Source: Thermoplasmatota archaeon
GTDB lineage: Archaea; Thermoplasmatota; JAKEGO01; JANQNJ01
Direction of reading: 5' to 3'
Assembly (NCBI GenBank): GCA_028279645.1
Contig: JANQNJ010000002.1
Location: forward strand, 1 to 58,905
Length of the DNA stretch: 58,905 nt
Made by a program: the position numbers and the translations under genes
Part shown: positions 11,546-26,132 of the stretch, piece after piece
Layout of the letters: every line of letters starts with the position of its first letter
How positions within the stretch are numbered: position 1 is the first letter of the stretch
Notes under the pieces: model-generated
Told to the model about the DNA's origin: nothing
What the model saw: only the letters and a program-made list of their open reading frames with translations
Databases searched by the model: none

Positions 11546-12655
11546 TCATCCCTTCAGGGAGAGTATGGTCCCGCCGCTCGGGCCTTCCTCCCATTCCGCC
11601 CCCGCTTTCATGAGGTCCACGAGCTTCTGTCCCTTCGTGGTGAGGTTGTAGCGGCCGTCGCCGTCCTTTGCCACGATCCCGGTGGAGCTCAGCGTCCGGA
11701 GGTGGAAGGCCAGGGTGCTGGAGTTCTCTATGTCCAGGTCGGCCTTGATCGAGTTGAAGTTCATGTGCGGGGTGTTGGTGAGGAGGTTCAGCAGGTCGAG
11801 CCTCAGCGGATGTGCGATGATGCTGGCGAACTCGGAGATCCGGTCCCTGGTCAGCAGATGTGACAGCTCCTGGTATGCAGAGGGCGTGAGGTGGGTGGAG
11901 TTGGTGGTGATGAACAGGCCGCTACCTTCCGGAACGATCTTCTCGTTAAGGAAGGCCACGTACTTCACGATATGATCTGGAGAGTGGGCCTCGATCAGAT
12001 AATCGATATTGAAGAACAGCAGCTGTGACTCCGGATGCTCCTCGAAGAACTGGCGGATCCTCTCGGTGAGGTTGTTGAGCTTCTTCGGGGACATAGTGTC
12101 CTCCTCCGCCGCGAGGTCCAGGCGCACTACGGCAATACTGGTCCCCTTTGATCGTATCTCGTCGATCTGGTCCCTGTGGTTGGAGAAGTCGGACTCGGGC
12201 ATTATCATCAACGTCGTGCTGGTGCATATACCGGCGAGGAAGTCGGTCTCGGTGTGGGCCTGGTCGCTTCCGAACTCACCCATCTTCCTGTTCAGCTCCC
12301 AGTCCTCCTTTGCCTCCTCGATCTTGCTAACGATGCTCTCGATCTTGAACGGCTTCGTAAGGTAGTCGTAGGCGCCGGACCTGAGGGCCTGGACCGCGGT
12401 CTCCACCGTTGCGTGGCCCGTGAACAGAATGACCTGGGTATCCTTGTTCCTCTCCTTGACCCGCTCCAGGAGGCCCAGTCCGTCGATGCCGGGCATCTTG
12501 AGATCGGTCATCACCAGCCAGAAGTCCGTTGCATCCATCTTCTTGAGCGCCTCCTTGCTGGAGCTGGCGCACTCGATCTCGTACCCGCTGTCGCCGAGGC
12601 CGGTCTGGACCGTCTCGAGGAATAGCTTATCGTCGTCCACGATAAGAATGCCCAT
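11546..12655 (-). CDS. response regulator: CheY-like receiver + DUF835-like middle domain + C-terminal ArsR-type winged helix
   Basis: REC: ILIVDDD...WLVMTDLKMPGIDGL...ILFTGHA...AYDYLTKPF. Middle ~150 aa (SIAVVRLD...MSPKKLNNLTERIRQFFEEHPESQLLFFNIDYLIEAHSPDHIVKYVAFLNEKI...GLFITTN) resembles archaeal DUF835 (from memory). C-terminus HPLRLDLLNLL...NFNSIKADLDIENSSTLAFHLRTLSSTGIV...RYNLT is an ArsR-like wHTH. Confidence 0.8.
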   Translation of the reverse strand: MGILIVDDDKLFLETVQTGLGDSGYEIECASSSKEALKKMDATDFWLVMTDLKMPGIDGLGLLERVKERNKDTQVILFTGHATVETAVQALRSGAYDYLTKPFKIESIVSKIEEAKEDWELNRKMGEFGSDQAHTETDFLAGICTSTTLMIMPESDFSNHRDQIDEIRSKGTSIAVVRLDLAAEEDTMSPKKLNNLTERIRQFFEEHPESQLLFFNIDYLIEAHSPDHIVKYVAFLNEKIVPEGSGLFITTNSTHLTPSAYQELSHLLTRDRISEFASIIAHPLRLDLLNLLTNTPHMNFNSIKADLDIENSSTLAFHLRTLSSTGIVAKDGDGRYNLTTKGQKLVDLMKAGAEWEEGPSGGTILSLKG

Positions 12656-12860
12656 GTGCTACACATCCTTCAATGGGGGTCGACAGGGTCCACGGTAGAC
12701 CTGCCCCGTAGGTTCAGATGTCCGACAGGAACAGCCTAATGACCTCGACCCCTCCCGGGGTTCAATCCATCTCCTGCATATTTAATGGTTATGCGAAGGA
12801 AGCCACGCAAACCTTATCTACTGGCCACTGCGGTCCCGGGTCTGGAAGGAACGTGGCGCC

Positions 12861-13067
12861 ATGGACCATGACAGCATCTCCATCGAGGTCGACGACCTGT
12901 CGACCTTCACGCACGATGTCAACAACCACCTCGCGAACATCACATTGCTAGCGCAGGTCCTGAAGAACCGGCTCGAGCCGCAGGACCATGAGAAGGTGGA
13001 GCAGATCCTCGGACAGGTGAAGAGGGTCGAGGTCCTGGTGAGGGAGATGCGGGACCGGGCGCCGTAG
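12861..13067 (+). CDS. stand-alone histidine-kinase DHp (HisKA-like) domain protein, no ATPase domain (68 aa)
   Basis: LSTFTHDVNNHLANITLLAQVLKNRL...QILGQVKRVEVLVREMRD is an H-box-like helix (compare HisKA_2 HHRVKNNL) followed by a second helix. Divergent from the REC gene. Confidence 0.5.
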   Translation: MDHDSISIEVDDLSTFTHDVNNHLANITLLAQVLKNRLEPQDHEKVEQILGQVKRVEVLVREMRDRAP

Positions 13068-13127
13068 GCTCACCCATCCCGTCGATTGTGATAAGGTTTA
13101 AGTAAATATAGTAGAATCCGACCGACG

Positions 13128-13535
13128 ATGAGGCCCTCCATGAACCTTTCCCGCACACTTGGTATTCTAGCAGCCATAGTGCTCGCGGTCTCGTTCTCCA
13201 CCCTGGCATTCAACTCCATGAAGGCTCAGGAAAGCCTCGGAACGGTGGAGATAACGGGAGAGGAGTTCACCTGGGAGGAGCTCGAGGAGGAGTACGGCCT
13301 CAGGACGATCGGGGAGCATAAAGGGCTCCCTCTCAGCGACATCGTGAACGACACCGGCCTCGAGGACCCGGACAAGCATCAGTACAGGATAACGGGTGTC
13401 GACGGCTACCAGAAGACGGTGAAGTGGAAGGATATGCTGAACTGCGTCATCGACATGGGCGAGAAGCGGACGGTCTTCCCGCACCTGCCCAAGGCGATGT
13501 ACGTCCGGGATGTAGTGGAGATAGAGGCGGTGTGA
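13128..13535 (+). CDS. membrane-anchored exported protein, one copy of a ~100-aa domain with SUOX/YedY-type 'oxidoreductase molybdopterin-binding'-like motif pattern
   Basis: N-terminal anchor LGILAAIVLAVSFSTLAF, then ...HKGLPLSDIVNDTGL...YRITGVDGYQKTVKWKDM...RTVFPHLPKAMYVRDVVEIEAV. First gene of a tightly spaced five-gene cluster. Confidence 0.6.
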   Translation: MRPSMNLSRTLGILAAIVLAVSFSTLAFNSMKAQESLGTVEITGEEFTWEELEEEYGLRTIGEHKGLPLSDIVNDTGLEDPDKHQYRITGVDGYQKTVKWKDMLNCVIDMGEKRTVFPHLPKAMYVRDVVEIEAV

Positions 13536-13537
13536 AG

Positions 13538-14287
13538 ATGAAGAGCTTGCATTTCTATCTCATTTGCTTAACGATGATCGTTGCAGCGGCGGCCATGGCC
13601 GGCTGCCTTGATGACGATAACGGTGACGGGGACAATGGCGGTAACGGAGGCAGTGGAGCCAAGATCACGATCAACGGGGTCGAGTTCCTCCTGAAGGATA
13701 TCTTCAAGGACTACGGGTCCAGGACCGTGAACAGCGACGGCAGCACCCTGACTGGCACGCCGCTTGACGCGCTGATCAACGCGACCAACCTCACGACCCC
13801 GGAGAACTGGCAGTACAAGATAACTGCGGGTGACGGCTTCTACAGGAACGTCACCTGGACCGACCTGACCAAGGGCGTTCTCGTGGAGGACGAGACCAAG
13901 ACCGCGTTCTCCAACCTTCCGAAGGGATATCAGGTCAGGGAGGTCGAGAAGATAGAGAAGATCACCACCGACCTCCTGGTGTTCGCGGACAGAACCTACA
14001 CATGGGACCAGCCGTTCGCCATATTCAAATGGGATATGAAGGACCATGTGGAGGACGCCAACACGACGCATACAGGCGTCGTCCTATGGGACCTGGCGAA
14101 CTTCACCGGGATCTCGGACGCCGAGAACGCGACCTTCAGGGTGACCGCCTCCGACGGCTACAACAAGAGCGTCGCAGGCGAGAACTTCACGAAGGGGCTC
14201 TTGGTCAAGGGGGAGATGAAGGTCGTCTTCCCTGACCTGGCCAAGTCGTTCTGGGTCAGGGACGTCGTGACGATAGAGATAATTTGA
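13538..14287 (+). CDS. putative lipoprotein with two copies of the same exported domain
   Basis: ATG 13538, 2 nt after the upstream stop. Signal plus lipobox-like ...AAAAMAGC, a Gly/Asp/Asn linker, then two repeats (...GTPLDALINATNL...YKITAGDGFYRNVTWTDL...FSNLPKGYQVREVEKIEKI and ...FRVTASDGYNKSVAGENF...VFPDLAKSFWVRDVVTIEII). Several N-x-S/T sequons. Confidence 0.65.
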   Translation: MKSLHFYLICLTMIVAAAAMAGCLDDDNGDGDNGGNGGSGAKITINGVEFLLKDIFKDYGSRTVNSDGSTLTGTPLDALINATNLTTPENWQYKITAGDGFYRNVTWTDLTKGVLVEDETKTAFSNLPKGYQVREVEKIEKITTDLLVFADRTYTWDQPFAIFKWDMKDHVEDANTTHTGVVLWDLANFTGISDAENATFRVTASDGYNKSVAGENFTKGLLVKGEMKVVFPDLAKSFWVRDVVTIEII

Positions 14288-14317
14288 CGATAACTCAATA
14301 ACAACAGGTGATGACCA

Positions 14318-15004
14318 ATGAACAGATACAGGATGATCGCAGGGATCATAGTGTTCGGCTCGATATGGGGGATGCTCGAGTGCTTCCTCGGCGGGTTCAA
14401 CCCGCAGGTCGGAATGCTCGGCGAGTTCCCGTCCGGCGCCCTTCTGGGAGGGTTCTTCGGGCTCGGGATCATGGCGATGACGAGGATGTGGTTCGGCGTG
14501 CGCGGCATGGCCTTCGGAATGGCCATCGTCGCGGGTTCGCTCCGATACATCGCGCCGGTGGGCACCTTCGTGATCTGCTCCGCCATCGCCATCGTGGCAG
14601 AGGGAGCGGTCTTCGAGATCATAATGAGCAGGAAGCAGCTGGACATCTCCAGGATAGCGACCCGAAGGTCGCTGGCGAGCGGCGCCGCATCCTATCCGAT
14701 GCTGGCCTTCCTGGGTGTGATAACCGGTTACGTGATCTTTGTAACGGGGTATGCGATCACTCAGATCCTGACGCCCTACCTGGGCACCGGGACCATCGTC
14801 CTCGCGGATGTGGCTGCCGTGATGCCGATAATCATCGGGAGGGGCTTCTATGCGGCAGTGCTCGGTGCGGTATCGCTTCCGCTGGCGGTCTACGTCGGCA
14901 ACCTGCACCTGGACCTTGACAGGATCAAGAAGGAGGTCTTCTATCCGCTGACCACCGCCGCGTCGGTCTGCTGCTGGATGGCCGTGATCATAGTGTTCTA
15001 CTGA
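14318..15004 (+). CDS. polytopic integral membrane protein (about 6 TM), family not recognised
   Basis: 228 aa, hydrophobic throughout (IIVFGSIWGMLECFLGG...). AGGTGA Shine-Dalgarno about 15 nt upstream. Lies inside the AOR cluster. Confidence 0.65.
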   Translation: MNRYRMIAGIIVFGSIWGMLECFLGGFNPQVGMLGEFPSGALLGGFFGLGIMAMTRMWFGVRGMAFGMAIVAGSLRYIAPVGTFVICSAIAIVAEGAVFEIIMSRKQLDISRIATRRSLASGAASYPMLAFLGVITGYVIFVTGYAITQILTPYLGTGTIVLADVAAVMPIIIGRGFYAAVLGAVSLPLAVYVGNLHLDLDRIKKEVFYPLTTAASVCCWMAVIIVFY

Positions 15005-15030
15005 GGACCCGAGACGAGGGGTGTGTTCCA

Positions 15031-15549
15031 ATGACAGGCGAGAAGGTGAAGGTCCTCAGGTACAGGGCCGATAAATGTGTTGGATGCCGGAAGTGCGAGA
15101 AGGCCTGCTCCAAGGTCCACTTCAAGGTCGAAAAGGGAGGGGACAGGTCCGCCATCAGGATAATGAAGGCAAAGGGAGACTGGTGGGAAAAGCTTCCCGA
15201 GGCGGTAAGGAAGGGTCTCCAGGGAGCCTCTGACGGAGAGGCCGAGGGCAAGTATGTCATGCACGTCTGCGACCAGCGCGGGCTATGCATCGATGTATGC
15301 CCGGTGGCCGCCATCACGAGGAAGCCAACAGGTGCCGTCTGGCTAGACAGGAAGCGTTGCGTGGGCTGCCTCTCCTGTATCGGCTTCTGTCCGATAGACG
15401 CCATGAGGCGCTGGGAGGGCGAGATCGAGCCGTTCAAGTGCATATCATGCGGCTCATGCGTCCGGGCCTGCCCGGAGGAGGCGCTCTACATGGAGGAAAG
15501 GGACGTGGAAGAGATCAAGGAAGTGGTGCACCACAGGATGGGGCCGTGA
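15031..15549 (+). CDS. 4Fe-4S dicluster ferredoxin-type protein (electron-transfer partner of the AOR)
   Basis: Cys motifs CVGCRKCEKAC, CDQRGLCIDVCP, CVGCLSCIGFCP, and CISCGSCVRACP. Confidence 0.85.
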   Translation: MTGEKVKVLRYRADKCVGCRKCEKACSKVHFKVEKGGDRSAIRIMKAKGDWWEKLPEAVRKGLQGASDGEAEGKYVMHVCDQRGLCIDVCPVAAITRKPTGAVWLDRKRCVGCLSCIGFCPIDAMRRWEGEIEPFKCISCGSCVRACPEEALYMEERDVEEIKEVVHHRMGP

Positions 15550-15554
15550 TATCA

Positions 15555-17927
15555 ATGGAGGGAAAGGATATGTTGAAGGGACAGGTCCCGCCGGAGGAGT
15601 ACGAGACCGGCAACACCAGGCACACATGGGACATCGAGGAGCTGAAGAAGGCCCACGAGGTCCTGGCCGAGGTGGGATACGAGAAGGGCGAGATCGTTCG
15701 CGGCTATGCCGGAAAGACGCTGTACGTCAACCTCTCCACCAACGAGATCAAGGAGAAACCGGTCACCGAGGAGATGAAGGAGCTGTTCACAGGCGGTAAG
15801 GGGTTCGGCCTCAAGCTGCTGTGGGACGGTATCAACAAGGACACCAAATGGGACAGCGATGAGAACGAGCTCGTCATGAGCGCCGGTCCGCTGAACGGCA
15901 TGACGCAGTACTCCGGCCTTGGAAAGTGTCTGTCGGTCACGATATCTCCATCCACCGGCCTGGTATGCGACTCCAACGCGGGCGGCTACTTCGCCCCGTA
16001 CATGAAGTTCTCGGGCTTCGACGCCCTGGAGGTCCAGGGCAAGGCCGACGAGGATGTGATCATATTCATCGACGGCATCGAGGGGAAGGTGTCGATAGAG
16101 AAGGCGCCGCTGGAGGAGACCAACGCACACCTTCTCTCGGAGCAGCTCACCTACCTGTACGCCGCCGAGGATACGGAGAAGGCGAGGCAGATGGTAACTG
16201 TGGTGTCGGCTGGAAAGGGAGCCGAACATAGCTACTGGGGCTGCCTGAACATATCGTTCTACGACCTACGCCGGAAGGTGCCGCGCCTGAAGCAGCATGG
16301 CCGCGGCGGCCTGGGCGCTGTCCTCAGGAACAAGAACATCAAGGCCATCGTCGCCCGGATCGAAGGATTCGACGGAATGGCGGACGACCCCGCCGATATA
16401 AGCAGGATCGCCAAGGTCGGCGAGAAGTACAACCGCGAGATGCGCGACCTCGACAGGTTCCAGAACAACATGCGCCAGGTCGGTACGGGGAATATCGTCG
16501 AGGTCATGGACGCCTACGACCTCCTGCCCACCGAGAACTATCGATTCGGCTCGTTCCCCAAGGCGTCGAACCTTCACTCGCCGAACTTCTTCGAGTACTT
16601 CACCAAGATCATACCCGACGGCTGCTGGTACGGCTGCACCATGGCATGCGCCAAGGCCATCGACGGCTTCGAGATCAGGACCGGGCCGTACAAGGGACAC
16701 AAGGTGACCGTTGACGGACCCGAGTACGAGAACGCCGCCGGCTGCGCCAACATGGGTCTCTGGATGCCCGAGTGGGTCATCGAGTGGAACTTCTACTGCG
16801 ACACCTACGGACTGGACACGATAAGCTTCGCCACCGGTGTCGCCTACTACATGGAGATGTACGAGTACGGCATCCTCAACAAGGAGCGTTGCGGCGGACT
16901 GGAGCTCTGCTTCGGCAACTTCGAGGCGACCATGGAGCTGATGCACAGGATCGCCGTGGGCGACGAGGACGAGTTCGTCAGGGTGGCGGCCAAGGGGATC
17001 AGGAGGATGAAGGACTGGCTCATCGCCAACAAGTGGGGCGAACAGCTCCTGATCGAGGACTGCGGAATGGAGGTCAAGGGCCTGGAGTACAGCGAGTATG
17101 TCTCCAAGGAATCGCTTGCCCAGCAGGGCGGCTATGGATTGGCAACCAAGGGCCCGCAGCACGACGAGGCCTGGCTTATCTTCATGGACATGGTCAACAA
17201 CCAGATCCCGACATTCAAGGACAAGGCCGAGGCGCTCCACTACTTCCCGATATGGAGGACCTGGTTCGGCCTCGCCGGCCTCTGCAAGCTTCCTTGGAAC
17301 GATATCACTCCGGCGGACAACGCCAAGACGTTCTCGCCGGCAAAGATCCCCGAGCACGTGCAGAACTACGCCGACCTGATGTCGGGCCTCTTCGGAAAGG
17401 AGGTCACGAAGAACGACCTCATCGACCAGAGCGAGAAGGTCTACAACTTCCAGCGTGCTATGTCCGTCTGGATGGGCAAGGGCCGCAGGGAGCACGACCA
17501 TCCCCCGTTCAGGTCCATGGGCCCCGTCACGAAGATGGAGTACGTCTCCCGTCAGGACCGCTACGACCAGGAGCTCGAGGAGAAGCTCGGACACTCAGAG
17601 GACGACATCGAGAAGATGACGGTGGACCAGAAGCTTCAGCTCATCTACGAGTACAGACGCGACCAGTACGAGAAGCTGGCCGACGCGGTCTACTATCGCA
17701 GGGGGTGGACCCAGAACGGCGTCCCGACGCCACAGAAGATGGCCTCCCTCGGCTTCGGCGGATACACCGCGATGCTCGAGATGCTCCAGGCCGCCATCGA
17801 CGCCGACGATGCTGACGGGAAGAACGTCTGGTACGGCGACTACGGCGCTGATGAAGAAGTGCCGTGCGACGATCTCCGGTACTGGGAGAACGACGGACTG
17901 GTGCAAGAGGACTACTTCGACGAATAA
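15555..17927 (+). CDS. aldehyde:ferredoxin oxidoreductase (AOR) family tungstopterin enzyme, long form (790 aa)
   Basis: ATG 15555 is 5 nt after the ferredoxin stop. AOR N-domain (GYAGKTLYVNLSTNEIKEKPV...GGKGFGLKLL...SAGPLNG...GGYFAPYMKFSGFDALEVQGKA), HGRGGLGAVLRNKNIKAI, cluster/pterin region (CWYGCTMACAK, GPEYEN), and GLDTISF. About 185 aa longer than the ~605-aa Pyrococcus AOR. Confidence 0.9.
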   Translation: MEGKDMLKGQVPPEEYETGNTRHTWDIEELKKAHEVLAEVGYEKGEIVRGYAGKTLYVNLSTNEIKEKPVTEEMKELFTGGKGFGLKLLWDGINKDTKWDSDENELVMSAGPLNGMTQYSGLGKCLSVTISPSTGLVCDSNAGGYFAPYMKFSGFDALEVQGKADEDVIIFIDGIEGKVSIEKAPLEETNAHLLSEQLTYLYAAEDTEKARQMVTVVSAGKGAEHSYWGCLNISFYDLRRKVPRLKQHGRGGLGAVLRNKNIKAIVARIEGFDGMADDPADISRIAKVGEKYNREMRDLDRFQNNMRQVGTGNIVEVMDAYDLLPTENYRFGSFPKASNLHSPNFFEYFTKIIPDGCWYGCTMACAKAIDGFEIRTGPYKGHKVTVDGPEYENAAGCANMGLWMPEWVIEWNFYCDTYGLDTISFATGVAYYMEMYEYGILNKERCGGLELCFGNFEATMELMHRIAVGDEDEFVRVAAKGIRRMKDWLIANKWGEQLLIEDCGMEVKGLEYSEYVSKESLAQQGGYGLATKGPQHDEAWLIFMDMVNNQIPTFKDKAEALHYFPIWRTWFGLAGLCKLPWNDITPADNAKTFSPAKIPEHVQNYADLMSGLFGKEVTKNDLIDQSEKVYNFQRAMSVWMGKGRREHDHPPFRSMGPVTKMEYVSRQDRYDQELEEKLGHSEDDIEKMTVDQKLQLIYEYRRDQYEKLADAVYYRRGWTQNGVPTPQKMASLGFGGYTAMLEMLQAAIDADDADGKNVWYGDYGADEEVPCDDLRYWENDGLVQEDYFDE

Positions 17928-17995
17928 AAGCGACGCTCGTTCCCGAGGTCAAGCTCTACTAACGAAGTCAATTCAAGCAATGTCCCAGCTATGGC

Positions 17996-18709
17996 TCAGA
18001 CCTTGTCATCCATCAGTTTCTCGTATTCATCCCGGGATAGGATGAAACCGTCGGAGACAGGATCGTAGAACTCCTTGTCCTTCTTGGGCCCATTCTTGAC
18101 CTCCATCTCCACCGTCTTGCGCGTCGATGCGATGAACTCCTCCGTGAGGACGTATCCGCCGTTCGACTGCCTGACAACGCCGGCCTTCATCATCTTCCGG
18201 ATGTGCCTTGAAACAGCTGGTTGAGAGACCTTGAGCTTAGCGGCGAGCTGGCTCTGTGTCATCTTGCCCTTCCGTCGGAGCAGGCCGCCGATGGCGGCCT
18301 GCGTCTTCGTCAGATTGTACTCGGGGCGCTGATATCCGTGAGGATAGAAGCGCTTGTAAATTCCGTCGTTGTCGTACTTGAGATATCCCGCCTTGACCAG
18401 GACCTGCAGGTGGTGTGCAAGCTTGCCGTTGGTCAGCTCGAGGTCCTTCTTGATCTTGTTGTAGTGGGTCCCCGGATTCGTCCCTATGTAGCCGACGATC
18501 CGGCCGCGCGTCTTATCGTCCAGGACCCTGGACCTCTTGACCTTGGCATACAGCCCGATCAGAACGGAGAGAAGGAGGTATTTTCCTACCTCAGTCCCTC
18601 CGACGACGAAAGCATAATACCAGAGCTCCCGCCGCAATTCCAGCAAAGATCGTGGGAGGGCCAAAGCCCGGGATGCCGTCGCTGTCGTCGTCCTTCTTGC
18701 CTCCGTCAT
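17996..18709 (-). CDS. membrane-anchored transcriptional regulator with two ArsR-like winged-helix domains
   Basis: One TM helix (WYYAFVVGGTEVGKYLLLSVLIGLYA), then wHTH 1 (RGRIVGYIGTNPGTHYNKIKKDLELTNGKLAHHLQVLVKAGYL) and wHTH 2 (MTQSQLAAKLKVSQPAVSRHIRKMMKAGVV). The only upstream in-frame starts (ATG 18709, TTG 18646/18637) lie inside the 3' end of the giant gene, so the exact start is uncertain. Confidence 0.6.
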   Translation of the reverse strand: MTEARRTTTATASRALALPRSLLELRRELWYYAFVVGGTEVGKYLLLSVLIGLYAKVKRSRVLDDKTRGRIVGYIGTNPGTHYNKIKKDLELTNGKLAHHLQVLVKAGYLKYDNDGIYKRFYPHGYQRPEYNLTKTQAAIGGLLRRKGKMTQSQLAAKLKVSQPAVSRHIRKMMKAGVVRQSNGGYVLTEEFIASTRKTVEMEVKNGPKKDKEFYDPVSDGFILSRDEYEKLMDDKV

Positions 18710-21700
18710 TCTTGCCGTCACCCTGCTCCTGGATAACGAGGTTGATGGAGGTGACATTGGAATATTGATAGCCGTCGTAGCTGCGGAAACGGAGCCTGTA
18801 CCTGGCAGGGGCGAACCCTGTCATGTTCAGGGAATATGACCAGTTGAACGTGGTGTTGGGCTGGATCGAGTATTCCGAGAGGTTGACAGAGAACCATGAG
18901 CCGTTGCCGATGCGGACCTCGACCTTCGTGATGTTGGAGAGTGCGTCGTAGGCTGTGCCGTTGATCACGACGACGCCGGTGACGGTGGTGCCGTTGGGTG
19001 GATACGTGATCGTGATGGTCGGGACAGCGATATCCGTTTCGACCACGGGAGTGGTGTTTATGATCGTAAGGGTGAAGTCTATCCGCCTTGATACCGACGG
19101 GTCCTTTGCCGAGATGATCTTCAGCTTCAGCGTGTAGTTGCCGACATCGAGATCGTCGAGGTCATCTGCCTCGATGTAGAACGTGTAATTGAAGGAGTAG
19201 TAGGGTGCCAGCGATGTGACGTTCGGTAACGGTCCAAGGGTGAATCCGCTCGGTACCTTGGTCGCGTTGATGGAATATGAGTCGGTGTCAGTGCCTGTAT
19301 TCGTTATCTGGAACTCCAGATCGATCCTCACTTCGTCATCATATTGGTCCAGGGTGCCATTGGTCGTGACGCCGATCTCTTCGAGATCGTAATTGTCCTC
19401 GAACCAGCTGGTGATCGACACCGATGTCGTCGGTCCCGATCCGATGGATGAGGTCACGGTTATCGTCTCGTTGATCATCTCATCGTCGATCTCGGGGGCG
19501 TCCGAGGTGTTCACGAAGACCTTGTACGACAGACTGTACCACTCACCGGGCTCGAGCCCGAAGATGGTCACCTCGTCGGTGCCGTTGATCGTGCCGTACA
19601 TGTCATCGGAGGCCGTATCGATGCTGAGGGTAAGATCATCGTTATCGTTGCCCATGTTCGTTATCTTGATGGAATATTCGGACTCCTCTCCGACCTCAAG
19701 CTTCTGTGTAGCGGGTCCGATGATCTCTATCTTGGGAGCGCCCTTGGATGCGATGTCGATCTCGTAGTCGAAGTAGACCTTCTTTGCATCGTCCGGTGCA
19801 TCTGGTCCGCTGAGACCATGGACCGGATCTATGCTGACGTTGATCAGATATGGAGCGTCGCTCACCGGTAGATCTGTTAGGTCGTCCGTATCGTAGGTCA
19901 CGTTGATGATTAACAATATCTCGTCTCCGAGATCGTAAATGCTCAAGGTCTTGGACCCATCATTAAAAGCCGCATCGAGATCATTGGGACCGTTGTTGAT
20001 GGAGATGACGAAGTCCTCTGGATGGATCCCGACATTCGTGATCTTGAGGTGGCATTTGAGGGTATCACCTTTAACGGGATCGTGGAAAATGCGATCCTCG
20101 ACCGGGAGATCATACTCGTAGGACACGATCCGTTCGAGAGTGCCTGTGACAGAGACCTCATCACCGAATCCTGAGGATGCGGAACCTCGGACCTTGAAGA
20201 ATATCTTATTCCGACTGCTGACCTCAGGATCGAATTGGTTCTCTTCGAGGGCTTCTTCCCGGGTATACACAAGGTTCACGTAGATGGAGCGCGTCTCCTT
20301 GAAATCCAGTGATATCGTTCCGTCGATCTCGAATGCGAGGGCGGAATCGGAATAGAATGTCACCCAATCCATATTATTTGGGGTTATCTCTGGAATATCC
20401 AGATCAATAATATCGTCGGCGTTGCCGATGTTCGTCAGCTCGATCTCGAAGGTGTTGTTCACATCGGCGGAGACCGTCTTTGTTGCGTTGGAGGCATATA
20501 ATTCCACGTCGTAGAACGGTTCGATGGTCAGGGTCAACGTCCGCTGTTTCACGATCGAAGGATCTGCATCGGATTTCACCTTGATCGTAAAAGTGTAGTT
20601 GCCGGCCTTGATGTCATTGGCGTCCTTGTCCAATGCATAGGACACGTTGATGAACACCGTTCTAGAGTGGTCCTCTTCGATGTCGTTGATACTTTGTGTT
20701 GGAATGCTCTTGAACTTGTTCGTAGAGTAACCGGACGCTTCTATTCGATAATCATCGGTCCGGGTCCCGGTATTTACGATCTCGAAATCGAACCGGGTAC
20801 CGAACTCTCCAGCATCGGGATCGATGGTCATGTTCATGTCGCCATTGATAATATCGAACTCAAGGGAGTATTCCAGGATCTCAAGGGTGAAATTGATCGT
20901 GTGCCGTACCGAGGTGTTGCTGCTCGAGGTCACGAGCAGGATGATCGTATGCTCGCCCTCCTCGATGTCGGAGTCTGAGGAGGGGATCGCAACATCGAAA
21001 TTGTAGTCGGTGTTCTCATCAGCATCGACGTTATTTACAGATCCGAGGGAACCAACGTTGAACTTGCTAGGAACGAAGACCTTCTCGACGAGGTAATCGT
21101 CCTCCCTCGTGCCGAGATTGTGAATGCGGAAGGTGAACTCTGCTTCATCCTCACCGTCGGCCGCATCGACCGAAACGAAATCATCGATCCCGATAAGCTC
21201 GAACTCGAACAGTTCCTTCAATCTGAGGGTGACGTTCTCCTCCAGTTCCACATCGTCGTCGCCTTCAGAGACGCCTTTGATCATGAACTCGGTCTTCACT
21301 AGCTCATCCCATTCGCTGCCTCTATCCCTTTTCGGGACCGAGACGTTCACGAACACTAGATGCTCCGAGGTCGAGCTTTCGAGTTCGACGTCGATCTCCC
21401 GGCCTTCGTGATGGACTGTTGTATTGTCCACGTTCTGAAGATAGTACAGGTTCGCCCAATCACCGTACGGACCGGTGACCGACATCTGGATCTCGTCCCC
21501 GATGTTGCCGTCGTTTATTATCAGTACCTCGAACTGCACGCTCTCGTTGAACCCTGCCCAGCGAGTGGTGGTGTTGATCTCCAATGAGAAATCGTATCTC
21601 TCGTCAACATCCACCTTGAAGGTGAAGTTCTTGATCAGCTCGGTCTCGCCGATCGACTTGACCTCGATGATGATCTCGTGGAAACCGACCTTAAGGGCTT

Positions 21701-24700
21701 CAGCGTTCTTCGGGACCTCGATGAAGACGTTCACATACGCCTCCTCGCCGGGATCGCCGTCCTTGCTGGCGTTGGCCTGGGAGTTATGGGACACCTTCCA
21801 TTCGGCAGCTGGGGTCTGTTGGGTCGTGATCCTGTAATCGTCCTCGTCGTTGCCGTCGTTATTTATTCTTAAGGTAGCGTTGTAACTGTCGCCGGCATCG
21901 ACGGTCATGTACTCGTCCGCACTGTGCACTTCGAAGTCATAGAACGGTTCGAGATCTATGGTGCAGACAATGTAGTCGAATACCGTCGGCTTTTCCTTTG
22001 AGGTAACGGTGATATTGATGTCGTGTTCACCGGGGTCCACATCGTTATCGTCAGCCACGTCGATAACGACCTGGATCAAGACATGTGTGTTGTCAGCAAG
22101 ATCAAGAATCTCCTGGATCTTGACCGCCTGGGTCTCGTTCCAAACCGCAGTAAAGCCCCAGCCAGCCATGGTGTCGGATAGGTCGATGTCATAGTCGTCC
22201 ATGATCGAGCCGGAGTTCTTGACCTTGATCTCGAAGGCGACCTCGTCGCCGGGATCAGCCGATTTGTAGGTGTCGAAGGAGGAGAGCTCCACGTCCCAAT
22301 CGTGCTCGATCCGGACCGTTAGGAACTGCCTCTCGAAGAGGGTCTGACCGCCGGATGAGAAGGTGACGTTCATGATGAAAACGTAATCATCAGGATCCTC
22401 GTCCTGGGGCACCTCGATCTCGATGTCGATGGTCTCGTCATCGTTGTATCCGAACAGCTCCACCGAAGGTGGATCGACATCCTGCACCCAAGTGGCCCAT
22501 TCGCCCTCTACCTCGATCTGGAAGGTGTCGTCGCCGTTGCCCTTGTTGATAAGACGAGGTGTGAACGTCACAGTGTCGCCCTTGTCGACCTTCTTCAGGT
22601 CGGAGGTGACCTTGATCTCGACGTCGTGGTACTGGTCGACCTCGACCGTCAGGTTCCGAGTGGCTATCGGCGAGGTGGTTTCATCGTTCACCGAGTCGAT
22701 AATCACAGAGATATCGTAATCCTGGTTCTGCGCCTCCTCCATATCGAGGGGTATGTCCAGGTAGATCTGGACCGTAGCCTGCTCGTTGGGATCGATCGTG
22801 ACCATGGATTCGTTGGCATCGGTAAACATGAAGAACCAGCCGGTCGGGACGGTGTCTCCGTCCACGGATATGTTGAAGGTGTCCGTGTGAGTGCCGGTGT
22901 TCTGCAAGGTCATGTTGAAATAGGAGTAGCTACCGGGCAGGCCGGTCGAGGTCCGAAGACCGCCGACCTCGAGACCATACTGGACCTTGATCGTCGTGTT
23001 GAACTCGTGTGTTTCAACGACGCCTGTGTCTTCCTGACAGGTGACCCGGAGGCTGATCAGCACGTAGCCCGCGTCCCTGACCTCCGGCGGCGTGTTGTCC
23101 CAATCCTTCAGGGTCACGTTGAGATAAGCCTCGACGGTCTCGCCGGCGTCGATAATAGGTGCTGTTGTACCCTTCTCCGTTCCATGGGAGGCCCAGGTCT
23201 TGTATGTACCTGTTCTCTCAATATTGAATCCGCTCGAACCTGTTCCAGTGTTCTTCACGTTCAGGGCATAGTACAGGGTGTCTCCGGGCTCGCCCTCGAG
23301 CGCATCGGTCTGGCTCGAGAGAAGCAACGAATAGACAGGATTCACAACAAGGGTGAACACCTCCGTCACAACGATGTCATCAGACGGGGATACGGTCCCG
23401 TTTTCCGACGTCCCGTTGACGTAGATGATGTAGGTGCTGGGATCCAGTTTGTTCGCATCCGGAAGCTCAACGGTGATCGTTGTCGTGTTGATCTCGTACA
23501 CGGCAAGGTCGATCCATGTGTCTTCGATAGTAATGATCGCATCACTATCTCTAGGCCACATGCTGGCCTCCAGTTCGACCTCATCTGAGCCGGTACCCTT
23601 GTTGACGACCTGCAGAGTATAGTTGACCACCCAGTTCGGATCACCGTTCTTCTGGGGGTTCGGTGATGTCAGCTCGAAATCATATAGTTGCCTTACACTG
23701 ACCACGACCTGTTGGTTCTTATCGTACTCGCCGTGAGTGGTCGCGTTCAGCTTGACCTCGTATTCGCCCTTGGGAGCGTCGCCTGCGGGTGTGACGGTAA
23801 GTGTCACTGTCGTCTGATCGTTCGCGGTGATAACGGGACTCGCACTTGGGGTGAAAATATAATCCCAATCGGCCTGCTTGTTGTCGACATCGATGCTGAT
23901 GGTGTCCTCACCATTACCCTCGTTCTTGATGATGATGTCGAAGGTCACGGCTTCGGCTGGATAGGTCTCCTTCGTGTTGATGCCGGATACCTGTACCTCG
24001 ACGGCATACGCTTGCTGAACGCTAACCTGAAGGCTCTTCGAAACATCGGTCCCGTCGGGGAGTGTGGAGTTCGCATAGAGCCATACAGAATATTCCTGGT
24101 TCAATGCGTCGCTGCCGACGCGGAAGGAGATCCTTGCCGATGCTTGCTCTTCGTAACCTATGTCGATCTGGTGATCAGGATCGATTCCGAGATCCAACCA
24201 ACCAGCTGGAAGCCACATCTCCAGCTCCGCGGTATCGTTATCGTTCCCGATGTTCTCGATCCATACGTCGGCGTTGACCACACCGGTCCCATTCCCTTCA
24301 GCCGAATATGGATAACGACTCGAGTTGATCTCATCTATGGATATCGCTACTATCCTGAACACACTGTACTTCTCCACCTGCACCTGATATGTGAGCTCGT
24401 TGGAATAATTGAGGTCCTCCATCAGGGCGCGGACCCTGAATTGATAGGTGCCTGCCTCGAACTTGTGTTCAGCGGTGATGGTAAGCTGAACGTTCTCGAC
24501 CTCCCCTCCATCGAGGTCCGGTTGATTGTTATCGAGCGCGCAGATCCAACCGGTACTGGAAACGTCGATCACTTCGAGATCGAACTCGGTGTTCCTGTTA
24601 CCAGCGTTCTCCACGCTGAAATTAAACATGGCCGATCTGTCCTGGTATCGGGTCATGACCTCATCTGAGGAGGAACCAAGATTGGTGAGCTTGCAGTCGA

Positions 24701-26132
24701 ACTTCTCTTCGACGTATACAGTGAGTGTGAGATTTACCATTATTGAGGTATCGCCTTGGCTCTGAGCATAGATCTTGACATTGTGACCGCCATAAGGAGC
24801 GTCCTCGCCGATCGTTATCCTTGCGATCACGGATTCGTTGTCGAACCGGTCAACATCCATCGTGGTCTGGGGTATGAACTGGATCAACCAACCCGAAGGT
24901 TCGGATGAGCTGAGGTAGAACCGGTCCTCGGCGTTGCCGTCGTTGTGTAGATATATCTCAACGTCGACAGAATCCTCTGGAAGAGTGTATTCGCCGGGGG
25001 ATTCGCCTTCGAGGTGCGCTTCATAGACCTGTAGGACGGTTGTTGTGACATTGATATCGATCGCAGGTGCTTGGGCACTCCCCTCATCCGGGGTTGCGGT
25101 TATGGTGATGGTTTTTGTCCTGTCCGGACCTTCTGCAGGGGCATTTTCGTCAGGTGTGATCTCGACTCTGAACGTTGCAGTCTCGTTGGTATCAAGGATG
25201 GCATATGCTGGATTCATGCCGATGGTCCAATCGTCAAGGGTTCCTGAATAACTGAGATCGTAGCGTACTTCGCTGTTTCCTCTATTGGTCAAGGTGAAGT
25301 TGTATTGTGCTTCCTGTCCGGGGAATGTGGAAAGGGAGGTGTCCTCGCATTCGAATTGATAGGAATAATATGGTAGTACCGTGAAGTTGAAGGGCACAGA
25401 AGATGTCGTTTCGCCTTCATCATCGGTTGCTGATACTGTTATGTAGTATACTTTTGCGGTCGCCATTCCAATATCAACGGTGAGATTGAAGTATTCTGTA
25501 GCACCCGAGAGTACATAGAGTGACGAGGGACCGATAACAGATATGTCGCCAGGAGAATGTGTAATACCGATATCGAACGTTTGATTATAATTCCAATGGT
25601 TCTCCAGTTTGAAGGGGATGTTAACAGTTGTCTCCACAGAACCGTTCAGGCGAGGATTGCCAACCATGGAAAGTAAATGCCATCCGCCTCGTCCGACTGT
25701 CGTTTCAATGTAGATATTGGCAGGTTCGGTTCCATTAGTATTCGATATGGACACGTAGGTCTCTTCCGATTCCTGATATTCGACGTCTCCGGGAGCGGTC
25801 ACCCTAACGTTGGTATACTTCCAGCCCGAGGCATCGATGTGCCAGGAGTTGGAACCCACGAATTCTGTAGTCCAACCCGAGCTAGGTGTGCTCAAGGTGA
25901 GCGTCACATCGGTCTCATACGGCGAAGAGCCATCCTTTGTTGCTTTGATACCGATCTGATATGTGACAGAATCTCCTGGATCTACTTCCTTCCCAGCTGG
26001 TGTGTTGGTATCATCAATATCTACATCTCCCAATGCAGCCGTTGTTACTATCATGAAAAAGAAGACTACCATCGCTGCAAGTAACAGCCGCTCGACCATG
26101 CTTCGAGACTGACGACTAAGCGAATCGTTCAT
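18591..26132 (-). CDS. giant (2513 aa) repeat-rich cell-surface protein / adhesin with PGF-CTERM archaeosortase sorting signal
   Basis: Uninterrupted 7.5-kb ORF with an N-terminal hydrophobic signal (LLLAAMVVFFFMIVTTAALG). The body is many ~100-130-aa beta-rich modules with the recurring pattern Y[DE]h.h.......V..G....F.h.h.N.G...D.[FY].[IL] (CARDB/NEW3/COG1470-like S-layer modules) and many N-x-S/T sequons. The C-terminus GIPGFGPPTIFAGIAAGALVLCFRRRRD is a PGF-CTERM signal. Confidence 0.9.
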   Translation of the reverse strand: MNDSLSRQSRSMVERLLLAAMVVFFFMIVTTAALGDVDIDDTNTPAGKEVDPGDSVTYQIGIKATKDGSSPYETDVTLTLSTPSSGWTTEFVGSNSWHIDASGWKYTNVRVTAPGDVEYQESEETYVSISNTNGTEPANIYIETTVGRGGWHLLSMVGNPRLNGSVETTVNIPFKLENHWNYNQTFDIGITHSPGDISVIGPSSLYVLSGATEYFNLTVDIGMATAKVYYITVSATDDEGETTSSVPFNFTVLPYYSYQFECEDTSLSTFPGQEAQYNFTLTNRGNSEVRYDLSYSGTLDDWTIGMNPAYAILDTNETATFRVEITPDENAPAEGPDRTKTITITATPDEGSAQAPAIDINVTTTVLQVYEAHLEGESPGEYTLPEDSVDVEIYLHNDGNAEDRFYLSSSEPSGWLIQFIPQTTMDVDRFDNESVIARITIGEDAPYGGHNVKIYAQSQGDTSIMVNLTLTVYVEEKFDCKLTNLGSSSDEVMTRYQDRSAMFNFSVENAGNRNTEFDLEVIDVSSTGWICALDNNQPDLDGGEVENVQLTITAEHKFEAGTYQFRVRALMEDLNYSNELTYQVQVEKYSVFRIVAISIDEINSSRYPYSAEGNGTGVVNADVWIENIGNDNDTAELEMWLPAGWLDLGIDPDHQIDIGYEEQASARISFRVGSDALNQEYSVWLYANSTLPDGTDVSKSLQVSVQQAYAVEVQVSGINTKETYPAEAVTFDIIIKNEGNGEDTISIDVDNKQADWDYIFTPSASPVITANDQTTVTLTVTPAGDAPKGEYEVKLNATTHGEYDKNQQVVVSVRQLYDFELTSPNPQKNGDPNWVVNYTLQVVNKGTGSDEVELEASMWPRDSDAIITIEDTWIDLAVYEINTTTITVELPDANKLDPSTYIIYVNGTSENGTVSPSDDIVVTEVFTLVVNPVYSLLLSSQTDALEGEPGDTLYYALNVKNTGTGSSGFNIERTGTYKTWASHGTEKGTTAPIIDAGETVEAYLNVTLKDWDNTPPEVRDAGYVLISLRVTCQEDTGVVETHEFNTTIKVQYGLEVGGLRTSTGLPGSYSYFNMTLQNTGTHTDTFNISVDGDTVPTGWFFMFTDANESMVTIDPNEQATVQIYLDIPLDMEEAQNQDYDISVIIDSVNDETTSPIATRNLTVEVDQYHDVEIKVTSDLKKVDKGDTVTFTPRLINKGNGDDTFQIEVEGEWATWVQDVDPPSVELFGYNDDETIDIEIEVPQDEDPDDYVFIMNVTFSSGGQTLFERQFLTVRIEHDWDVELSSFDTYKSADPGDEVAFEIKVKNSGSIMDDYDIDLSDTMAGWGFTAVWNETQAVKIQEILDLADNTHVLIQVVIDVADDNDVDPGEHDINITVTSKEKPTVFDYIVCTIDLEPFYDFEVHSADEYMTVDAGDSYNATLRINNDGNDEDDYRITTQQTPAAEWKVSHNSQANASKDGDPGEEAYVNVFIEVPKNAEALKVGFHEIIIEVKSIGETELIKNFTFKVDVDERYDFSLEINTTTRWAGFNESVQFEVLIINDGNIGDEIQMSVTGPYGDWANLYYLQNVDNTTVHHEGREIDVELESSTSEHLVFVNVSVPKRDRGSEWDELVKTEFMIKGVSEGDDDVELEENVTLRLKELFEFELIGIDDFVSVDAADGEDEAEFTFRIHNLGTREDDYLVEKVFVPSKFNVGSLGSVNNVDADENTDYNFDVAIPSSDSDIEEGEHTIILLVTSSSNTSVRHTINFTLEILEYSLEFDIINGDMNMTIDPDAGEFGTRFDFEIVNTGTRTDDYRIEASGYSTNKFKSIPTQSINDIEEDHSRTVFINVSYALDKDANDIKAGNYTFTIKVKSDADPSIVKQRTLTLTIEPFYDVELYASNATKTVSADVNNTFEIELTNIGNADDIIDLDIPEITPNNMDWVTFYSDSALAFEIDGTISLDFKETRSIYVNLVYTREEALEENQFDPEVSSRNKIFFKVRGSASSGFGDEVSVTGTLERIVSYEYDLPVEDRIFHDPVKGDTLKCHLKITNVGIHPEDFVISINNGPNDLDAAFNDGSKTLSIYDLGDEILLIINVTYDTDDLTDLPVSDAPYLINVSIDPVHGLSGPDAPDDAKKVYFDYEIDIASKGAPKIEIIGPATQKLEVGEESEYSIKITNMGNDNDDLTLSIDTASDDMYGTINGTDEVTIFGLEPGEWYSLSYKVFVNTSDAPEIDDEMINETITVTSSIGSGPTTSVSITSWFEDNYDLEEIGVTTNGTLDQYDDEVRIDLEFQITNTGTDTDSYSINATKVPSGFTLGPLPNVTSLAPYYSFNYTFYIEADDLDDLDVGNYTLKLKIISAKDPSVSRRIDFTLTIINTTPVVETDIAVPTITITYPPNGTTVTGVVVINGTAYDALSNITKVEVRIGNGSWFSVNLSEYSIQPNTTFNWSYSLNMTGFAPARYRLRFRSYDGYQYSNVTSINLVIQEQGDGKNDGGKKDDDSDGIPGFGPPTIFAGIAAGALVLCFRRRRD

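Follow-up and report, generated by a model that had tools for sequence, protein, structure and literature searches.

A conserved pair of a minimal SUOX-type exported domain and an S-component-like membrane protein as a probable uptake system for preformed tungsten cofactor in Thermoplasmatota

How can an archaeon run a tungstoenzyme whose cofactor it has no evident means of making? Genomes with molybdo- or tungstoenzymes and no cofactor pathway have been described as "orphan molybdoprotein-containing organisms" (PMC6147048), and MoeA is missing from much of Thermoplasmatota (PMC11291035); neither study offered a mechanism. The question is raised by a five-gene cluster in a Thermoplasmatota archaeon, located on a 58,905-nucleotide (nt) stretch of contig JANQNJ010000002.1 that is referred to here as the window. 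The source assembly (179 contigs, 2.24 Mb) has a completeness of 82%. The cluster (g1 to g5, positions 13128-17927, + strand) ends in a gene for an enzyme of the aldehyde oxidoreductase (AOR) family. We propose that an exported-domain gene and the g3 homologue next to it, together called the pair, probably encode a system that takes up preformed tungsten cofactor and supplies it to the AOR. The features of the cluster are as follows.

13097..13110, + strand: TATA-like TTTAAGTAAATATA, read from the sequence, 18-31 nt 5' of the g1 ATG; putative archaeal promoter of an operon transcript with a short leader or none
13128-13535, + strand: g1, 135 amino acids (aa), membrane-anchored exported protein, transmembrane (TM) helix at about residues 5-38 and one domain at about 36-135
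13538-14287, + strand: g2, 249 aa, lipoprotein, signal peptide with lipobox-like ...AAAAMAGC and two tandem domain copies
14318-15004, + strand: g3, 228 aa, polytopic membrane protein and proposed permease, S-component-like fold plus one more helix at the C-terminus
15031-15549, + strand: g4, 172 aa, polyferredoxin (Pfam Fer4 families), AOR electron-transfer subunit
15555-17927, + strand: g5, 790 aa, AOR-family tungstopterin enzyme (AFOR_N, AFOR_C)

An earlier note, made by reading this DNA alone, had listed five co-directional genes with small gaps, namely a one-domain anchored protein, a two-domain lipoprotein, a membrane protein, a polyferredoxin, and a 790-aa AOR. The open reading frames (ORFs), Pfam searches, and alignments bear out this gene list, and the gaps measure 2, 30, 26, and 5 nt. 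Within the five-gene cluster, no site resembling a terminator was detected on the + strand.

The distribution of the pair was examined in an even sample of 201 Thermoplasmatota genomes. The g3 profile, which marks the pair, gave strong matches in 46 genomes (34 of them with a completeness of 90% or more and a contamination of 5% or less) and weak ones (E ~1e-5) in two others, which were set aside. MoaC is present in 97 of the 201 genomes, MoeA_N in 91, WtpA in 24, and AFOR_C (E <= 1e-10) in 117. MoaC, MoeA, and WtpA were each found in 0 of the 46 pair genomes, and none of the 24 WtpA genomes carries the pair; AOR is encoded in 44 of the 46. The 117 AOR genomes are made up of 53 with MoaC and/or MoeA, 44 with the pair, none with both, and 20 with neither. 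The exported-domain profile identified 49 genomes, namely the 46 pair genomes and three of the "neither" set, and not one of these 49 has MoaC or MoeA. The MoaA C-terminal domain, MoaE, and MoCF_biosynth were absent from all five pair genomes searched for them, four of which are 97-99% complete, as were MoaC and MoeA from five further pair genomes, three of them labelled as chromosomes. Both states occur within five families (f3, f5, f12, f35, and f38), though never in one genome; in f3, for instance, the pair is present in 7 of 11 genomes, and MoaC, MoeA, and WtpA occur together in the remaining 4. In one f3 genome (G003), the AOR and the pair lie on different contigs. The source genome, at 82% completeness, showed no MoaC and no TupA-like match by tblastn, and no TupA/WtpA-type binding protein is encoded in the five-gene operon according to Pfam and NCBIfam. 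Matches to SBP_bac_11, considered as candidates for tungstate binding, turned out in the three pair genomes examined to belong to PstS phosphate systems. Pair-bearing archaea keep tungstopterin enzymes without the cofactor-making steps or the usual archaeal tungstate binder, and have the pair instead.

The linkage of these genes is conserved as well. One genome per species was scanned, and the best 80 of 111 loci with g3 relatives were compared by tblastn with the five window proteins. In every one of the 78 loci with 420 nt or more of upstream sequence, the exported-domain gene lies immediately 5' of the g3 homologue, and an extra two-domain gene resembling g2 is present in nine of them. Among the 76 loci with at least 900 nt of downstream sequence, an AOR gene follows within 1 kb in 60 and a polyferredoxin gene stands after the g3 homologue and before the AOR in 55, while 16 have an AOR-free neighbourhood in which housekeeping genes adjoin the pair; the AOR is rearranged in five loci. 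The five-gene arrangement is far from chance, and the conservation of gene order on which the earlier note had staked its proposal was found both for the pair and for the AOR downstream. Since the pair stands apart from the AOR in those 16 loci, its core unit is the exported domain plus the permease. In five loci (L023, L026, L031, L037, and L045), the pair is followed by genes for NTPase_1 (THEP1-like), a HerA/DUF87 ATPase, and QueH, with no ferredoxin or AOR there. A bacterial locus (G201:C2:144258-145539; L034:6001-7279) has the permease gene in tandem duplicate, and the second copy contains one in-frame TAA.

The enzyme at the end of the operon is a clear AOR-family member, as g5 matches AFOR_N with 162.4 bits (cut-off 29.8) and AFOR_C with 274.8 bits (cut-off 27). 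Among solved structures, g5 matches 8c0z (E 1.2e-41) and 1aor (E 2.8e-41) best, and at 790 aa against 605 aa for 1aor_A, it is indeed about 185 aa longer than the classical enzyme, as had been noted. In the alignment with 8c0z, the motifs GCWYGCTMAC, DTYGLD, and AGLC fall at matching places, with the first Cys shifted by one residue; these may correspond to the [4Fe-4S] Cys ligands and the two pterin-binding D-x-x-G-L-(D/C) motifs. Full-length matches to g5 in the related loci are 64-72% identical to it (tblastn). The N-terminal part of g5 is most like the YdhV model NF007354 (108.7 against a cut-off of 868), and g4, which has Fer4 families over four stretches, weakly resembles the YdhY-type model NF007382 (55.7 against a cut-off of 213).

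Other forms of AOR were met in the same survey. A split AOR follows the pair in four full loci, L050 (6677-12587), L056, L060, and L072, and in L059, which is incomplete. Its first part (442 aa) joins AFOR_N to a NuoE-like thioredoxin-like [2Fe-2S] domain, its second (624 aa) is a NuoF-like FMN/NADH protein with ferredoxin domains, and its third (700 aa) is a Fer2_4 plus Fer4 (2Fe-2S/4Fe-4S) module fused to AFOR_C, after which comes a ThiF-family gene. This composition suggests an NAD(H)-linked or bifurcating AOR variant. ThiF-family (MoeB-like E1) genes of about 200 codons (L044:2594-3199, L047:2456-3061, and L050:11991-12587) adjoin the pair or trail the split AOR in genomes apparently without molybdopterin synthase. 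In addition, a solitary AOR paralogue of about 710-730 aa, about 50% identical to g5, occurs in G029, G095, G173, G118, G088, and others (L081-L092), which are genomes without MoaC/MoeA and without the pair.

The motif that the earlier note had drawn from the exported proteins is real, as the three copies of the domain (one in g1 and two in g2) align with 17 invariant columns, and the g2 copies are 31-37% identical to that of g1. By sequence, g1 gives a sub-threshold match to Oxidored_molyb (PF00174; E 0.036, 14.1 bits against a cut-off of 24), and g2 has no Pfam match to this family. Weak matches to Oxidored_molyb appear in 10 of 48 single-domain relatives (best listed E 3e-4), with no other family recurring comparably. 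Sequence searches of the PDB yielded nothing for g2 and nothing relevant for the exported-domain profile. A word-based homology search with g2 returned only g2 itself among 876 candidates; its relatives were found by tblastn in loci fetched via g3.

The predicted structure is more telling. The AlphaFold2 (AF2) model of g1, built on the sequences of 48 relatives, has a mean predicted local confidence (pLDDT) of 89.9. In a VIA-align search of 48,161 solved chains, its top ten matches are all SUOX-fold proteins (Z 8.4-14.0), and the next, an unrelated fold, reaches Z 5.5. The matches include SoxC (2xts; Z 14.0, root-mean-square deviation (rmsd) 2.0, 98 residues aligned), SorT (4pw3; Z 13.3), SorA (2blf; Z 12.2), nitrate reductase (2bii; Z 11.8), chicken sulfite oxidase (1sox; Z 9.9), and YedY (1xdq; Z 8.8); the SUOX-family chains align over about 98 residues with an rmsd of 1.7-2.3. 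The small pterin-binding protein PruR is also recovered (7rkb, Z 11.0; 7kp2, Z 10.7; rmsd 2.3-2.4, 95-96 residues aligned), and Foldseek finds the same SUOX/PruR families with a best E of 3.8e-3. The g1 model contains the core fold of the SUOX molybdenum cofactor (Moco) domain, and the likeness to SUOX/YedY pointed out in the earlier note is upheld by VIA-align, which ranks SUOX-family Moco domains far above all else. The exported domain of about 100 aa models as a minimal SUOX-type cofactor-binding fold, with PruR as its nearest small relatives.

In SUOX enzymes, a conserved Cys on a β-hairpin ligates Mo or W (PMC11194511 and PMC1949818, both in excerpt). No Cys is invariant or nearly so among the 48 members of the exported-domain family, and the only Cys of g1 is not conserved. 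The invariant residues are A15, G66, Y94, and F117, with D92 and W100 nearly invariant, and a position near the C-terminus is often aromatic (the consensus has W and g1 has Y, although R stands there in many members). PruR, as described in excerpts of PMC11194511, is likewise a small exported SUOX fold in which the Cys hairpin is truncated; it holds a pterin between a Tyr and a Trp, with an Asn hydrogen bond, in a site equivalent to the Moco site (Y104, W160, and N102 in A. tumefaciens). By analogy with PruR, which at about 140 aa binds pterins with a truncated fold, the earlier verdict that the exported domain falls far short of the length needed for cofactor binding is unsafe.

The membrane protein g3 belongs to no family in Pfam or NCBIfam. 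No consistent Pfam family was found among 30 members, and none of any kind among 20 remote representatives; a PDB sequence search gave chance-level matches only, and all 88 homologues collected are nameless or "hypothetical". When the g3 profile was run against 1.84 billion representatives, 261 matched at E <= 1e-3 and 26 at E <= 1e-30. Two long remote relatives (P0206 and P0220), considered as exported-domain fusions, were ruled out. The earlier note had given g3 about six TM helices; the membrane assignment stands and the count does not, as the AF2 model (pLDDT 89.4, predicted TM-score (pTM) 0.87) shows seven long helices, six of them S-component-like and the seventh C-terminal. In VIA-align, the top 15 rows for this model are all S-components of energy-coupling factor (ECF) transporters or their metal/B12 relatives, with 150-176 residues aligned and Z 7.3-12.1, a range (Z < ~13) in which the scores of helical bundles may reflect shared arrangement alone. 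Among them are 5edl (Z 12.1, rmsd 4.2, 170 residues), BtuM (8ovv; Z 9.0), a NikM-type chain (Z 8.1), and CbiM (5x3x; Z 8.0). Foldseek gave no match for the g3 model at E <= 0.001, the best being E 0.15. The model has the six-helix S-component fold by VIA-align; because of the helical-bundle caveat and the lack of a significant Foldseek match, this assignment is good but not beyond doubt. The invariant residues of g3 are S15, W17, E21, C87, E95, T148, T152, P153, and W220. There is no invariant His, C87 is the sole invariant Cys, and C219 is conserved in at least 90% of members. C87 is, in our view, reminiscent of the cobalt-binding Cys of BtuM.

Structure prediction also places g1 and g3 together. 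The predicted g1-g3 complex passed with a score of 0.79 (best of three controls 0.00). Among solved complexes, 116 of 157 attain the pass mark, as do 2 of 215 mismatched pairs, rates that are rough here, where our own alignments were used. The runs share at least 90% of contacts, and the partner pLDDT is at least 81. In this model, the TM helix of g1 packs against g3 residues 125-184, and a conserved face of the g1 domain (residues 87, 89, 92-99, and 120-124) is set against the outer loops of g3. The predicted interface includes conserved D92-Y94 of g1 and T148, Q149, T152, and P153 of g3.

The pair is not confined to archaea. Six of the 80 loci are bacterial (Pelolinea or Anaerolineae records), and in a sample of 121 genomes of the Anaerolineae order, the pair was found in the centre genome only, apart from four remote matches (E ~1e-9). 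Five Anaerolineae metagenome-assembled genomes (MAGs) with the pair have neither MoaC (0 of 5) nor MoeA (0 of 5), and four of the five have AOR. Two of the six bacterial loci carry the Moco RNA motif (RF01055; 70.8 and 69.8 bits), flanked by the pair on one side and a divergent gene on the other; genome-wide, exactly one copy is present in each of four Anaerolineae pair genomes and none in the fifth, at 70-82 bits against a gathering score of 36. In three genomes, this riboswitch lies 5' of a lipoprotein gene of about 140-150 codons that encodes the exported domain (hhalign probability 95%, E 2.6e-8 to the family; Oxidored_molyb E 0.004-0.011), and in two of these three, the lipoprotein gene adjoins the pair divergently. 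The fourth genome has it ahead of the gene for a 458-aa protein whose N-terminal part is an ECF S-component (PF09819, E 6.5e-20) and whose C-terminal part is weakly like the exported domain (hhalign probability 24%, E 8.5e-4; profile search E 7.5e-5). Relatives of the riboswitch-controlled lipoprotein were found in nine loci, all Anaerolineae, with the riboswitch in six of the nine; three of those six came from a scan of six newly examined loci.

All four riboswitches are missing the P3 stem. According to excerpts of Regulski et al. (PMC2408646), P3-less Moco RNAs are associated with the metabolism of the tungsten cofactor rather than with that of the molybdenum cofactor. In a genome without the biosynthesis, a switch that senses the cofactor and controls an exported binder fits feedback control of uptake. 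The same excerpts mention, as exceptions, two P3-less Moco RNAs before "sulphite oxidase" genes in Syntrophomonas wolfei. These genes might be more members of the mini-SUOX family.

As the pair is confined to genomes unable to make the cofactor, and in view of the operon and the predicted folds, the pair probably scavenges ready-made cofactor. The operon would thus join the AOR (g5) and its polyferredoxin (g4) to a dedicated system that acquires the cofactor from outside the cell. In this proposal, membrane-anchored g1 and lipid-anchored g2 would expose minimal SUOX-type domains at the cell surface, where they would capture preformed metallopterin released by other microbes; the likeliest ligand would be the tungsten cofactor (W-molybdopterin, "Tuco") or something derived from it and very close to it. 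Docking of g1 on g3 would involve the g1 TM helix and the conserved face of the g1 domain, and g3, as an ECF-S-component-like permease, would carry the ligand across the membrane, presumably inward, either as a solitary transporter or with an ECF module. The imported cofactor would then be inserted into apo-AOR. The transported form could be W-molybdopterin, a bis-pterin form, or a metal-free pterin with later insertion of the metal; the metal-loaded form is favoured because MoeA, MoaB, and WtpA are absent. The earlier note had offered two options, and it is its "dedicated uptake or maturation system" that is supported by the phyletic pattern, together with the riboswitch linkage in bacteria. 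We consider it somewhat more probable than otherwise that the pair is an uptake system for preformed tungsten cofactor serving the AOR. That it is the first prokaryotic importer of preformed tungsten (or molybdenum) cofactor, in which Cys-less mini-SUOX domains hand metallopterin to new S-component-like permeases, stands at about even chances.

Several observations weigh against cofactor uptake. Free Moco and tungsten cofactor (Wco) are labile. The exported domain is without the metal-ligating Cys hairpin and most of the cofactor cleft, and both the range of the VIA-align scores and the Foldseek result for g3 count here as well. CbiQ/EcfT (PF02361) was detected in two of five pair genomes and not in two genomes that are 98-99% complete; no EcfT/EcfA genes lie next to the operon in the window. 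Most of the genomes compared are MAGs, and kin are not independent, so that relatedness inflates the tests. Of the 117 AOR genomes, 20 have neither the pair nor MoaC/MoeA; three of these carry the exported domain, one (64% complete) has WtpA, and about 16 AOR genomes, some 97-99% complete, have neither route. The pair is therefore not the sole route. The AOR neighbourhoods of nine "neither" genomes (12 stretches) contain no match to the g3 or exported-domain profiles, and Pfam searches of 16 ORFs flanking AOR in such genomes revealed nothing transporter-like. Furthermore, 12 of the 46 pair genomes have PF00384 matches, although the family match leaves the cofactor status undefined; if true bis-MGD enzymes (MGD, molybdopterin guanine dinucleotide), these proteins would need extra cofactor processing. 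Finally, a paralogous branch of the exported domain occurs in bacteria with MoaC and MoeA (5 of 5 genomes tested), and in three loci from Anaerolineaceae and Longilinea MAGs with MoaC and MoeA, the domain forms the C-terminal part of a TupA-like tungstate-binding protein.

L103:1430-2866: TupA-domain fusion
L104:1256-2821: TupA-domain fusion
L105:1592-2920: TupA-domain fusion

The TupA-like parts match PF12849 (E ~1e-50) and score 230-244 bits with NF041772, under its 400-bit cut-off; the fused domains pass Oxidored_molyb (24.6-32.5 bits against a cut-off of 24), and the fusion gene sits after ABC permease and ATPase genes. At least this branch thus operates together with tungstate uptake and, occurring in cofactor producers, is not restricted to auxotrophs, which keeps alive the alternative that the pair itself is an importer of tungstate, a metal oxyanion, supplying W to the AOR through a permease with extracytoplasmic accessories, as in CbiMN/NikMN(KL). 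Other points are consistent with it: excerpts of PMC2408646 tie P3-less Moco RNAs to tungstate transporters too, WtpA is missing from all 46 pair genomes, with SBP_bac_11 matching only PstS in three of them, and the CbiM and NikM-type chains are among the fold matches of g3 (Z 8.0-8.1). Tungstate, however, is useless without molybdopterin synthesis and metal insertion, and MoaC and MoeA are missing from all 46 pair genomes and MoaA, MoaE, and MoaB-MogA from all five examined. A tungstate importer would be expected alongside biosynthesis, and all 46 archaeal and all five bacterial genomes with the pair are without it; the fold of the exported domain is, moreover, of the pterin/metallopterin pocket type. 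On balance, a tungstate importer is unlikely. The domain could, as a matter of speculation, always capture extracellular metallopterin, with the whole cofactor imported in auxotrophs and the metal alone recovered in producers.

Less likely still is that the pair takes up or senses another pterin or micronutrient of the folate, monapterin, or methanopterin type, the link with AOR being a by-product of auxotrophy. The non-Moco pterins bound by PruR, the closest small structural relative (PMC11194511, in excerpt), argue for such a role, as do the vitamins that S-components mostly carry, the housekeeping genes beside the pair where it stands apart from AOR (16 of 76 loci), and QueH, of queuosine metabolism, downstream in five of those 16. 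It would leave unexplained, however, the AOR operon in 60 of 76 loci, the riboswitch of the tungsten-cofactor class before domain genes, and the within-family swaps with the MoaC-MoeA-WtpA set, and no DcpA-like signalling partner is present.

The other option of the earlier note, a membrane-associated complex in which g3 anchors the AOR and polyferredoxin and the exported domains pass electrons as in MsrPQ, has the tight operon and the catalytic SUOX-fold domains of MsrP/YedY on its side but is highly improbable, as g3 has a transporter fold with no invariant His and C87 as its sole invariant Cys (C219 at >=90%), the exported domain has neither the metal-ligating Cys nor most of the cleft, and in 16 of 76 loci neither AOR nor ferredoxin is near the pair, which in G003 lies on a contig separate from AOR. 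The MsrPQ analogy was dropped, g3 not being a haem-binding ferric-reductase-type protein. Of the earlier note, then, the gene list, the SUOX likeness, and the uptake or maturation option survive, and the redox-linking complex does not. The remaining probability goes to explanations not thought of here.

The surroundings of the operon may be described briefly. Immediately 3' of it, on the - strand (window 18591-26132), lies a gene for a 2513-aa exported protein, very acidic and repeat-rich, with a C-terminal membrane anchor. Upstream are a 369-aa ORF (11546-12655, - strand), which by eye has a response-regulator receiver-like start and a winged-helix-like end, and a 68-aa ORF (12861-13067, + strand) with a histidine-kinase-like phrase, also by eye. 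An Rfam scan of window positions 12000-18500 gave nothing credible, and a protein atlas look-up returned clusters without names only.

If the pair does import preformed tungsten cofactor, whole Thermoplasmatota lineages and some Anaerolineae would be auxotrophs that run tungstoenzymes on the cofactor of their neighbours, and the "orphan molybdoprotein" genomes would be explained. Cross-feeding of a highly labile cofactor within anoxic communities would be implied, Moco/Wco would join the cofactors salvaged by prokaryotes, and an S-component would be shown to use an extracytoplasmic capture protein. The pair would then serve as a marker for cofactor auxotrophy and neighbour dependence in uncultured anaerobes, and might aid the production of tungstoenzymes in hosts unable to make the cofactor. 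With just two small proteins, it is a concrete, testable candidate.

In comparison with known systems, PruR (7kou, 7kp2, and 7rkb) is like the exported domain in being small, exported, and made up almost entirely of a truncated SUOX fold without a metal-ligating Cys. PruR, however, is a soluble protein of about 140 aa that acts in signalling with DcpA, a cyclic di-GMP enzyme (GGDEF-EAL), whereas the exported domain has about 100 aa, is membrane- or lipid-anchored in up to three copies per locus, and is partnered by transporter-like g3 (78 of 78 loci) and AOR rather than by a DcpA-type GGDEF-EAL protein. The larger SUOX-family Moco domains (sulfite oxidase, SorA/SorT, SoxC, YedY/MsrP; PF00174) have the core fold and motif pattern in common with the exported domain, but extend over about 170 aa or more and include the Cys hairpin and the dimerisation and catalytic additions that are missing from it.

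The ECF S-components, including solitary BtuM, resemble g3 as small helical membrane proteins of the same fold, g3 likewise being predicted to import a scarce cofactor. In contrast to them, g3 belongs to no Pfam S-component family (0 of 30), has an extra seventh helix, and has an obligatory extracytoplasmic partner, which classical ECF systems do without. The two-subunit AORs (E. coli YdhV/YdhY, WOR5, and AorAB) share with g4-g5 the combination of a polyferredoxin with an AOR-family enzyme; g4-g5 differ from YdhV/YdhY in scoring far under the cut-offs of those models and in the 790-aa length of g5.

No salvage of Moco/Wco by prokaryotes was found in the openly licensed literature of PubMed Central and bioRxiv, where uptake of preformed Moco appears only in nematodes. 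As described in excerpts of PMC7849362, PMC9793310, and PMC7619442, nematodes obtain preformed cofactor from microbes in the diet, in the absence of Moco synthesis or independently of it, as in the system proposed here; unlike it, theirs is an animal system that uses protein-bound cofactor and involves no transporter of the g3 type. Likewise, a system that pairs an S-component-like permease with an extracytoplasmic capture protein appears not to have been described in the same literature. The parts of this system, together with the AOR that it accompanies, resemble things known in kind: PruR-type binders, S-components, and two-subunit AORs.

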